Of a stretch of DNA of 1,285 nt, positions 1-1,285 are shown piece by piece. A program made the position numbers and the translations under genes. A model generated the notes under the pieces. The model saw nothing but the letters and a program-made list of their open reading frames with translations, was not told the origin of the DNA and did no database searches. Every line of letters begins with the position of its first letter. Position 1 is the stretch's first letter. This DNA is from a phage: sequence record M65239.1, one strand, 5' to 3'.

Positions 1-6
1 GAATTC
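1..6. other. EcoRI recognition site (GAATTC) at the exact 5' end of the window
   Basis: Literal GAATTC at 1-6. Its position at the terminus suggests a cloning boundary. Confidence 0.6.
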
Positions 7-86
7 AATTCATCAGTGATAGTTACGTTACGCTGCGCCTTCTTTTTTTCCCTTCCAATATAAGAACTACGCAATCCGTTACTGGC

Positions 87-91
87 GGAGG
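87..91 (+). promoter_or_regulatory. Shine-Dalgarno (GGAGG) for the S gene dual starts
   Basis: GGAGG at 87-91 is 7 nt upstream of ATG 99 and 16 nt upstream of ATG 108. Confidence 0.5.
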
Positions 92-98
92 CGTTGCT

Positions 99-314
99 AT
101 GAAATCAATGGACAAAATCTCAACTGGCATTGCCTACGGAACATCTGCTGGTAGTGCGGGATACTGGTTTTTGCAGTGGTTGGATCAGGTCAGTCCGTCA
201 CAGTGGGCTGCGATTGGAGTGCTTGGAAGCCTTGTGTTGGGTTTTCTCACTTATCTGACAAATCTGTATTTCAAAATCAGAGAAGACAGACGAAAGGCTG
301 CGAGAGGTGAATAA
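99..314 (+). CDS. S: Class II holin (pinholin), phage 21 S-type; 71 aa with dual-start motif Met1-Lys2-Ser3-Met4 (long form antiholin, form starting at Met4 holin)
   Basis: ORF 99..314 (71 codons, stop TAA 312-314). The protein has two predicted transmembrane segments, a weakly hydrophobic Gly/Ala/Ser-rich TMD1 ([22 protein letters not shown]) and a more hydrophobic TMD2 ([23 protein letters not shown]), followed by a highly charged C-terminal tail ([13 protein letters not shown]). Two in-frame ATGs at 99 and 108 are separated by a Lys codon. GGAGG at 87-91 lies 7 nt upstream of the first ATG. The sequence matches my recollection of phage 21 S21; this was not verified by alignment. Confidence 0.9.
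304..307 (+). promoter_or_regulatory. Shine-Dalgarno (GAGG) for R, located within the 3' end of S
   Basis: GAGG at 304-307 is 6 nt upstream of the R ATG at 314. Together with the overlapping stop/start this suggests translational coupling. Confidence 0.4.
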
Positions 315-811
315 TGCCTCCATCATTACGAAAAGCCGTTGCTGCTGCTATTGGTGGCGGAGCAATTGCTATAGCATCAGTGTTAATCACTGGCCCAAGT
401 GGTAACGATGGTCTGGAAGGTGTCAGCTACATACCATACAAAGATATTGTTGGTGTATGGACTGTATGTCACGGGCATACAGGAAAAGACATCATGCTCG
501 GTAAAACGTATACCAAAGCAGAATGCAAAGCCCTCCTGAATAAAGACCTTGCCACGGTCGCCAGACAAATTAACCCGTACATCAAAGTCGATATACCGGA
601 AACAATGCGCGGCGCTCTTTACTCATTGCTTTACAACGTGGGTGCTGGCAATTTCAGAACATCGACGCTTCTTCGTAAAATAAACCAGGGCGATATCAAA
701 GGCGCATGTGATCAGCTACGTCGCTGGACATATGCTGGCGGTAAGCAATGGAAAGGTCTCATGACTCGTCGTGAGATTGAGCGTGAAATCTGTTTGTGGG
801 GTCAGCAATGA
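314..811 (+). CDS. R: SAR (signal-anchor-release) endolysin, T4-lysozyme-like muramidase family (phage 21 R21-type); 165 aa
   Basis: ORF 314..811 (stop TGA 809-811). The N-terminus has a short basic stretch (LRK) followed by a Gly/Ala-rich weakly hydrophobic segment ([20 protein letters not shown]) typical of a SAR domain. A lysozyme-type catalytic motif is present, with Glu35 (416-418), Asp44 (443-445) and Thr50 (461-463) in GLEG...[13 protein letters not shown]. The start ATG overlaps the S stop (TAATG, 312-316), and a GAGG at 304-307 is a plausible Shine-Dalgarno. Confidence 0.9.
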
Positions 812-1269
812 ACAGAGTAACCGCGATTATCTCCGCTCTGGTTATCTGCATCATCGTCTGCCTGTCATGGGCTGTTAATCATTACCGTGATAACGCCATT
901 ACCTACAAAGCCCAGCGCGACAAAAATGCCAGAGAACTGACGCTGGCGAACCGGGTAATTACTGACATACAGATGCGTCAGCGTGATGTTGCTGCGCTCG
1001 ATGCAAAATACACGAAGGAGTTAGCTGATGCGAAAGCTGAAAATGATGCTCTGCGTGATGATGTTGCCGCTGGTCGTCGTCGGTTGCACATCAAAGCAGT
1101 CTGTCAGTCAGTGCGTGAAGCCACGACTGCCTCCGGCGTGGATAATGCAGCCTCCCCCCGACTGGCAGACACCGCTGAACGGGATTATTTCACCCTCAGA
1201 GAGAGGCTGATCACTATGCAAAAACAACTGGAAGGAACCCAGAAGTATATTAATGAGCAGTGCAGATAG
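808..1269 (+). CDS. Rz: Rz, inner-membrane spanin (i-spanin) subunit; 153 aa
   Basis: ATG at 808 overlaps the R stop (ATGA, 808-811). The N-terminus [23 protein letters not shown] is a type II signal-anchor TMD. The remainder is charged and rich in Ala/Arg/Asp/Glu/Gln, as expected for a periplasmic coiled-coil, with Cys residues in HIKAVCQSV and near the C-terminus (NEQCR). It closely resembles lambda Rz from memory. The ORF track extends the frame to a GTG at 796, but the ATG at 808 is preferred. Confidence 0.85.
1015..1020 (+). promoter_or_regulatory. Shine-Dalgarno (AAGGAG) for embedded Rz1, inside the Rz coding sequence
   Basis: AAGGAG at 1015-1020 is 7 nt upstream of the Rz1 ATG at 1028. 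Confidence 0.55.
1028..1210 (+). CDS. Rz1: Rz1, outer-membrane lipoprotein spanin (o-spanin) subunit; 60 aa precursor, encoded entirely within Rz in the +1 frame
   Basis: ORF 1028..1210 is in frame +1 relative to Rz. The N-terminal signal peptide [20 protein letters not shown] ends in a lipobox (VVGC), with the lipid-modified Cys20 at 1085-1087. The mature 40-residue part is proline-rich (8 Pro) and contains one further Cys. A strong Shine-Dalgarno AAGGAG at 1015-1020 lies 7 nt upstream of the ATG. Confidence 0.85.
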
Positions 1270-1279
1270 AGCTGCCCAT

Positions 1280-1285
1280 ATCGAT
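1280..1285. other. ClaI recognition site (ATCGAT) at the exact 3' end of the window
   Basis: Literal ATCGAT at 1280-1285, preceded by GCCCAT, which could be the left arm of a palindrome centred on the site. Confidence 0.6.

Follow-up and report, generated by a model that had tools for sequence, protein, structure and literature searches.

The question raised by this locus is whether its four closely packed genes form a novel lysis system or one that is already known and, in the latter case, from which phage or prophage they came. The window (i.e., the whole stretch of 1285 nt that was analyzed) opens with GAATTC (EcoRI) and closes with ATCGAT (ClaI), and there is very little doubt that it is an EcoRI-ClaI fragment of the lambdoid coliphage 21 that carries the lysis cassette of the late operon, S21-R21-Rz-Rz1. 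In all likelihood, the window is the entry in which these genes were first deposited, presumably GenBank M65239, and was sequenced by hand. The cassette is already known and fully described as the type example of pinholin/SAR-endolysin/spanin lysis, and the initial annotation of this DNA, which was made from the letters alone, was right not to regard it as a novel system, as the cassette is the textbook phage 21 example.

The mechanical ORF list places S, R, Rz, and Rz1 all on the plus strand, where together they cover positions 99-1269, and it contains no minus-strand ORF of more than 61 amino acids in the window. A four-gene module with a single direction and overlapping gene boundaries had been proposed for exactly this interval, and the ORF list bears out both its composition and its limits. 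The features of the window are as follows.

1-6, no strand: EcoRI site GAATTC, with which the cloned fragment begins on the left; its homologue in λ is the EcoRI site at 44972.
7-48, plus strand: 3' arm of a hairpin followed by a T-tract, a putative terminator-like element (lambdoid "boundary sequence") whose 5' arm lies just beyond the window.
86-91, plus strand: Shine-Dalgarno-like GGAGG, 5' of the dual starts of S; the 20 nt upstream of S read TTACTGGCGGAGGCGTTGCT.
99-314, plus strand: S21-71, antiholin (antipinholin), 71 amino acids, start at Met1, identical to HOLIN_BPP21 and to the copy in the phage 21 genome.
108-314, plus strand: S21-68, pinholin (class II holin), 68 amino acids, start at Met4 (the second in-frame ATG, at 108).
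314-811, plus strand: R21, SAR endolysin (T4-type/GH24 lysozyme), 165 amino acids, with matches in Pfam, PHROG, PDB, and UniProt.
808-1269, plus strand: Rz, i-spanin, 153 amino acids from the ATG at 808, with matches in Pfam, PHROG, and UniProt.
1028-1210, plus strand: Rz1, o-spanin lipoprotein, 60 amino acids, in the +1 frame within Rz; QBC41022.1, "Rz1 [Escherichia phage 21]".
1280-1285, no strand: ClaI site ATCGAT, the right end of the cloned fragment.

The stop codon of S overlaps the start codon of R by 1 base (TAATG), and the stop codon of R overlaps the start codon of Rz by 4 bases (ATGA). In the mechanical ORF list, the Rz frame opens at an upstream GTG at 796, as opposed to the ATG at 808. 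The Rz1 gene is entirely embedded in the Rz gene and out of frame (+1) with it, which is the embedded spanin architecture.

The holin, lysozyme, and spanin families to which the genes had been provisionally assigned are recovered strongly for all four ORFs in both Pfam and PHROG. S matches PF04971 (Bacteriophage P21 holin S; E 8.6e-36, 122 bits vs. a cutoff of 26), R matches PF00959 (phage lysozyme; E 1.3e-44), Rz matches PF03245 (E 3.9e-53), and Rz1 matches PF06085 (E 1e-18), and all four Pfam scores far exceed the curated cut-offs. Given these E-values, the cassette lies far beyond chance. In PHROG, S falls into the holin family, R into the endolysin family, and the two spanin genes into Rz-like spanin.

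The sequence ATG AAA TCA ATG at 99-110 encodes the dual-start motif M1-K2-S3-M4 of S, 7 nt 3' of GGAGG. Residues 7-28 of S are uncharged and weakly hydrophobic (mean KD 0.52; 55% Gly/Ala/Ser/Thr), residues 30-58 are uncharged and more strongly hydrophobic (KD 1.72 in the best 19-residue window), and the C-terminal tail has a net charge of +3 over the last 15 residues. Judged by hydropathy, S is predicted to have the make-up of a class II holin, with two transmembrane segments, of which the first is SAR-like, and a short charged tail; a small holin with two TMDs and a charged tail had been pointed out in the initial annotation. Its reading of S as a holin stands, with the refinement that the gene encodes two proteins, the antiholin S21-71 and the pinholin S21-68. 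This dual start, with an antiholin that has an extra N-terminal positive charge, was described previously (PMC9636201). A protein identical to S forms small, depolarizing heptameric channels of ~2 nm that retain soluble endolysin (PMC9636201, PMC9239132). At the RNA level, the fold at the dual start (window 60-140) is unexceptional (z -0.56, with 57 of 200 shuffles scoring equally well or better), and we therefore claim no regulatory stem-loop at the start of S.

The endolysin gene is equally well anchored. Over its full length, R is identical at 163 of 165 residues to the R21 structure PDB 3HDE (E 7.3e-111), with mismatches solely at residues 105 and 106, and it also matches the R21 structure 3HDF (residues 27-165). 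An uncharged, Gly/Ala-rich segment of the SAR type (62% Gly/Ala/Ser/Thr) occupies residues 8-31 and is directly preceded by R6-K7, so that the N-terminal SAR domain ascribed earlier to the endolysin is visible in the R sequence. The catalytic triad E35-X8-D44-X5-T50, read from the translation, is present and follows the E-X8-D-X5-T motif as defined previously (PMC9239132). Sec-dependent export of R21, its tethering to the membrane, and its release upon depolarization or by the pinholin have also been reported (PMC12642591, PMC9239132). The combination of a SAR domain with a T4-type lysozyme that has the E-X8-D-X5-T motif is shared with P1 Lyz and other SAR endolysins (e.g., Mu gp22 and N4 gp61; PMC9239132). 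P1 Lyz and these other enzymes are, however, distant from R in sequence. PDB 1XJT and 1XJU are weak matches (E 3e-8 to 1e-7). Activation involves disulfide isomerization in P1 Lyz and refolding of the catalytic domain in R21.

For the spanins, the N-terminal TMD of Rz lies approximately at residues 4-26 (KD 2.63). The periplasmic Cys99 and Cys152 of Rz and Cys29 of Rz1 are all present; in λ, Rz C99 and C152 and Rz1 C29 serve intermolecular disulfides (PMC6139136). The Rz1 lipobox, VVGC, fits the consensus [LVI][ASTVI][GAS]C (PMC6139136), with the lipidation-type cysteine position at Cys20 and Thr-Ser, i.e., no Asp, at +2/+3, as predicted for an o-spanin that escapes retention in the inner membrane. 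In λ Rz/Rz1, these residues and the periplasmic cysteines have been shown to be important (PMC6139136). The penta-proline stretch of Rz1 (P32-P36) is interrupted, as the window reads P-R-L-P-P vs. P-P-P-P-P in both the resequenced phage 21 and λ. In λ Rz1, this stretch is mutationally sensitive, and P34 is the sole position reported to be permissive (PMC6139136). Despite the broken penta-proline, the membership of Rz1 in its spanin family is, on alignment, not in doubt, because 57 of its 60 residues are identical to those of λ Rz1.

The origin of the fragment is shown by its closest relatives. In a megablast search of the phage collection, the top DNA match is Escherichia phage 21 (OL657228.1), with 98.6% identity across window 7-1285, and the runner-up lambdoid phages are ~94-95% identical. 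The genes, their order, their overlaps, and the dual start are identical in the two phage 21 sequences, and positions 39866-41036 of OL657228.1 are annotated as antiholin S21-71, holin class II S21-68, SAR endolysin, i-spanin, and o-spanin, with a ribosome-binding site annotated at the place equivalent to the GGAGG of the window. At the protein level, identity with the resequenced phage 21 is 100% for S, 163/165 for R, 152/153 for Rz, and 58/60 for Rz1. An exact-sequence look-up returned UniProt P27359 (ENLYS_BPP21) for R and P27358 for Rz, letter for letter, and found these two exact sequences on 0 assembled contigs; S is HOLIN_BPP21, which is present on >1000 contigs. Together with the R21 crystal structures, the DNA match and the exact UniProt phage P21 proteins substantiate the earlier suggestion that this DNA is from phage 21 or a very close relative. 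The genomic context, which had been singled out for inspection, is also in agreement. In OL657228.1, Q21, pR', the Q-binding element, tR', tRNA-Asn, and tRNA-Thr are found upstream of the cassette, with the two tRNAs just upstream of the window, and bor (on the minus strand) is found downstream, ~16 nt past the ClaI site, with cosQ at the end of the linear record.

The window and the 2021-era record OL657228.1 differ by 11 substitutions and by indels that lie within the first 54 nt. These first 54 nt, which are untranslated, contain two 5-nt duplications (AATTC at 2-6 and GTTAC at 22-26) and three single-base deletions; where the window begins, the phage 21 genome reads CATGAATTCATCAG, and the window has the additional AATTC at 2-6. 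In the coding region, four synonymous changes in R (at 361, 364, 370, and 379) are common to the window and the copy in E. coli Origami2-DE3. Given that they are shared, these four changes are, by sequence comparison, real lineage polymorphism. The differences beyond these four are absent from the phage 21 genome as well as from the copy in the DE3 strain. They include an adjacent GC/CG swap at 628/629, which results in R F105L/V106L, a synonymous change at 676 that is private to the window, a second adjacent GC/CG swap at 952/953, which results in Rz A49R, and changes at 1125 and 1128, which are silent in Rz and result in Rz1 P33R and P34L.

Two readings of these private differences were weighed. 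They could belong to a genuine variant allele from a laboratory stock or a λ-21 hybrid, in which case the amino-acid changes in R, Rz, and Rz1 would be real. The four synonymous R variants, which indicate that the source lineage truly differs from the resequenced phage, are consistent with such an allele, and so is Rz1 P34L. The T at 1128 occurs naturally in a prophage of E. coli strain ECO20, and the proline that it replaces is the only one of the five for which permissiveness has been reported (PMC6139136); this T is the sole partial exception among the private differences. Set against this are the results of a search with 62-mers centered on the three coding-change sites in 5,426 complete E. 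coli genomes, in which 2,178, 694, and 4,039 E. coli records were matched, 0 of them perfectly. The 628/629 swap, the 952/953 swap, and the P33R base were thus found in none of the 5,426 genomes. The crystallized R21 protein (PDB 3HDE) likewise carries F105/V106 and not L105/L106. Furthermore, the pattern of the differences resembles that of errors: it includes two adjacent GC/CG transpositions, and in the leader single bases are missing from homopolymer or GC runs. Adjacent swaps and single-base losses in such runs are typical of manual gel-reading errors. We therefore regard the variant-allele reading as improbable, and consider it marginally less probable still that R F105L/V106L, Rz A49R, and Rz1 P33R are real alleles of the laboratory phage 21 lineage. 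If the changes in R, Rz, and Rz1 were real, this lineage would tolerate an interruption of the Rz1 penta-proline that is sensitive in λ genetics, or the spanin of this allele might be impaired. The window-private differences instead look like errors of an early, manually read sequence, and Rz1 P33R probably entered the deposited sequence by mistake.

That the window comes from an E. coli prophage, cryptic or resident, with the essD-rrrD-rzpD cassette of DLP12 or another cassette of the RrrD type as examples, is very improbable. Homologous cassettes annotated as essD/rrrD/rzpD are very common, occurring in 5,159 of the 5,426 complete E. coli genomes, and RrrD (PDB 4ZPU), which aligns with R across all 165 residues (E 9.1e-110), is almost as near to R as 3HDE. 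The DLP12-type cassette of E. coli K-12 has the family and architecture found in the window. This resident or cryptic prophage copy is, however, more divergent than phage 21, as its DNA is typically 94-96% identical and its proteins are not exact matches. Except for one DE3 strain (98.8%), the copies in E. coli genomes are at most 96.7% identical to the window, vs. 98.6% for the phage 21 genome, and the exact window sequence with its 628/629 and 952/953 variants is in none of the 5,426 genomes. R and Rz, moreover, are the exact UniProt phage P21 entries that were seen on no assembled contig, and the window has an EcoRI site at one end and a ClaI site at the other, as a cloned fragment would. 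A prophage origin of the DLP12/RrrD type is rejected on these grounds of identity.

Comparison with λ places the phage 21 cassette in a mosaic. The S-R-Rz-Rz1 cassette of λ has the same gene order and the same position in the late operon, and λ shares the upstream hairpin block and the EcoRI site with the window. Window 7-41 is homologous to λ 44946-45004, and this homology ends directly after GGCCTT, at approximately position 41; it resumes exactly at the Rz ATG (808) and continues to the end of the window, where 467 of 478 nt (97.7%) are identical. λ Rz and Rz1 are identical to those of the window at 148/153 and 57/60 residues, respectively. Between these limits, the S and R of the window are not meaningfully similar to their λ namesakes, as the best local alignments cover 10 and 15 columns. 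As λ homology ends at ~41 and restarts at 808, the module specific to phage 21 is, by alignment, a mosaic insert of roughly window 42-807 (leader, S21, and R21) with λ-like sequence on both sides. The initial reading of the locus as an S21/R21 cassette is correct overall, with the refinement that its phage 21-specific genes are limited to S and R, Rz and Rz1 being essentially those of λ. λ S is a canonical large-hole holin with three TMDs, and λ R, a soluble transglycosylase, has no SAR domain (PMC9636201). That the window encodes a canonical λ-type pair, i.e., a large-hole holin and a soluble cytoplasmic endolysin, has a negligible probability despite the λ-like gene order, the λ-like dual-start motif of S, and the nearly identical Rz and Rz1, and it is refuted by the lack of S/R similarity to λ together with the Gly/Ala-rich, uncharged SAR segment of R that λ R lacks, as well as by the place of S in the P21 class II holin family and the reported inability of S21-68 to replace λ S105 (PMC9636201).

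A separate observation concerns the leader. Window 7-48 consists of the 3' arm of a conserved hairpin and the T-tract that follows it; the hairpin is without annotation in OL657228.1. Its stem is ~20 bp long in the phage 21 genome, with CUUCUUUUUUU directly after it, and its fold stands out from shuffled sequences (z -3.37, with 0 of 200 shuffles as good). The hairpin block is kept in 79 phage records, including λ, and may act as a further terminator of the late operon or mark the boundary of a module. A scan of the plus strand of the window for consensus promoters and terminators gave nothing above shuffle expectation, although the same scan misses the annotated tR' and the bulged hairpin at the phage 21 locus. 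Rfam (E up to 1) and tRNA scans of the window gave no matches.

With the window identified as the phage 21 lysis cassette, a mechanism can be proposed for it. The arrangement of the genes, the families to which they belong, and the identity of their products with characterized proteins are read directly from the window; because S, R, and the spanins are experimentally characterized proteins, we infer the biochemical steps from the literature on them (PMC9636201, PMC9239132, PMC12642591 and, for the spanins, PMC6139136). Late transcription from pR', antiterminated by Q21, would yield a single mRNA, on which initiation at the two starts of S would give the pinholin S21-68 (Met4) and the antiholin S21-71 (Met1). 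The extra Lys2 of S21-71 would restrain the weakly hydrophobic TMD1 and thereby delay triggering. Meanwhile, R21 would be exported by the host Sec system and be tethered in the inner membrane via its SAR domain in an enzymatically inactive form. S21-68 would accumulate in the inner membrane until, at a moment that depends on the S allele, its heptameric channels of ~2 nm collapse the proton-motive force. The SAR domain would then exit the bilayer, and R21 would refold to an active lysozyme that degrades the murein. Finally, a complex of Rz in the inner membrane and the lipoprotein Rz1 in the outer membrane would fuse both membranes and complete lysis. The mechanism outlined in the initial annotation agrees with this published pinholin/SAR-endolysin pathway (PMC9636201, PMC12642591).

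The private differences have consequences for the use of this sequence. P27359, P27358, and the deposited Rz1 inherit R L105/L106, Rz R49, and Rz1 R33, which are supported neither by the resequenced phage, nor by the crystallized R21 (for the R residues), nor by the 5,426 E. coli genomes. As a reference, OL657228.1 or PDB 3HDE is therefore preferable to P27359/P27358. The window is itself the reference sequence that underlies the pinholin/SAR-endolysin paradigm.

Comparison with related sequences revealed three coding differences that were private to the window:

628-629, adjacent GC/CG transposition, resulting in F105L/V106L in R
952-953, adjacent GC/CG transposition, resulting in A49R in Rz
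1125, C-to-G change, resulting in P33R in Rz1

These variants were found neither in the resequenced phage 21 genome (OL657228.1) nor in the DE3-strain copy, and none occurred in the matching records among 5,426 E. coli genomes. They were also absent from the R21 crystal structure entry (PDB 3HDE). The three variants are probably errors, which have been carried on into the UniProt entries for R (P27359) and Rz (P27358). Next to the private Rz1 substitution, a P34L change (window 1128, codon 34) is a natural variant carried by an E. coli ECO20 prophage (L004 701-762), at the position reported to be the only one in the λ Rz1 penta-proline stretch that tolerates mutation (PMC6139136). The UniProt entry for the phage P21 o-spanin (P0DOK7) differs in length, being 62 aa with an additional 'FT' following Asp45, which is encoded neither in the window (Rz1 at 1028-1210, protein P0047) nor in the phage 21 genome.

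R departs from OL657228.1 at four synonymous sites clustered in its SAR-domain codons (window 361-379), and the copy in E. coli Origami2-DE3 has the same four changes. These shared differences suggest a common phage 21 source, distinct from the resequenced isolate, for the cloned fragment and the phage lineage of the DE3 laboratory strains. In the Origami2-DE3 assembly (L002 1-7600, NZ_CP084529.1), the NinB-Q21-tRNA-S21-R21-Rz-bor block directly adjoins F-plasmid leading-region genes (psiB, a ParB-family gene and ssb), and this junction could reflect F' integration or a join introduced during assembly.

Two hairpins were recognized, one upstream of S21 and one inside R:

7-48 (L001, the phage 21 genome locus, 3979-4040), bulged hairpin of ~20 bp followed by CTTCTTTTTTT; the window begins at its apex
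525-552, minus strand, terminator-like hairpin with an 11-pair stem and, after it, a T-rich tail, within R

A scan of the window for terminator-like sites returned three in total versus 1.0 ± 1.1 in shuffles, which is not clearly more than expected by chance. In the phage 21 genome, the upstream hairpin and CTTCTTTTTTT are placed between tRNA-Thr and S21, where they look like an intrinsic terminator; the predicted 129-nt RNA fold had an energy of -37 kcal/mol (z = -3.37; 0/200 shuffles). This hairpin is without annotation in OL657228.1. The hairpin block in phage CUS-3 is annotated as 'bsq3; boundary sequence'. The block is kept in 79 phage records, including that of λ (44946-45004), whose EcoRI site at 44972 is the homologue of the EcoRI site that opens the window (1-6). 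Homology to λ stops right past GGCCTT (~window 41) and restarts exactly at the Rz ATG (808). Thus, the leader-S21-R21 block constitutes a cleanly bounded mosaic module with λ-like flanks.
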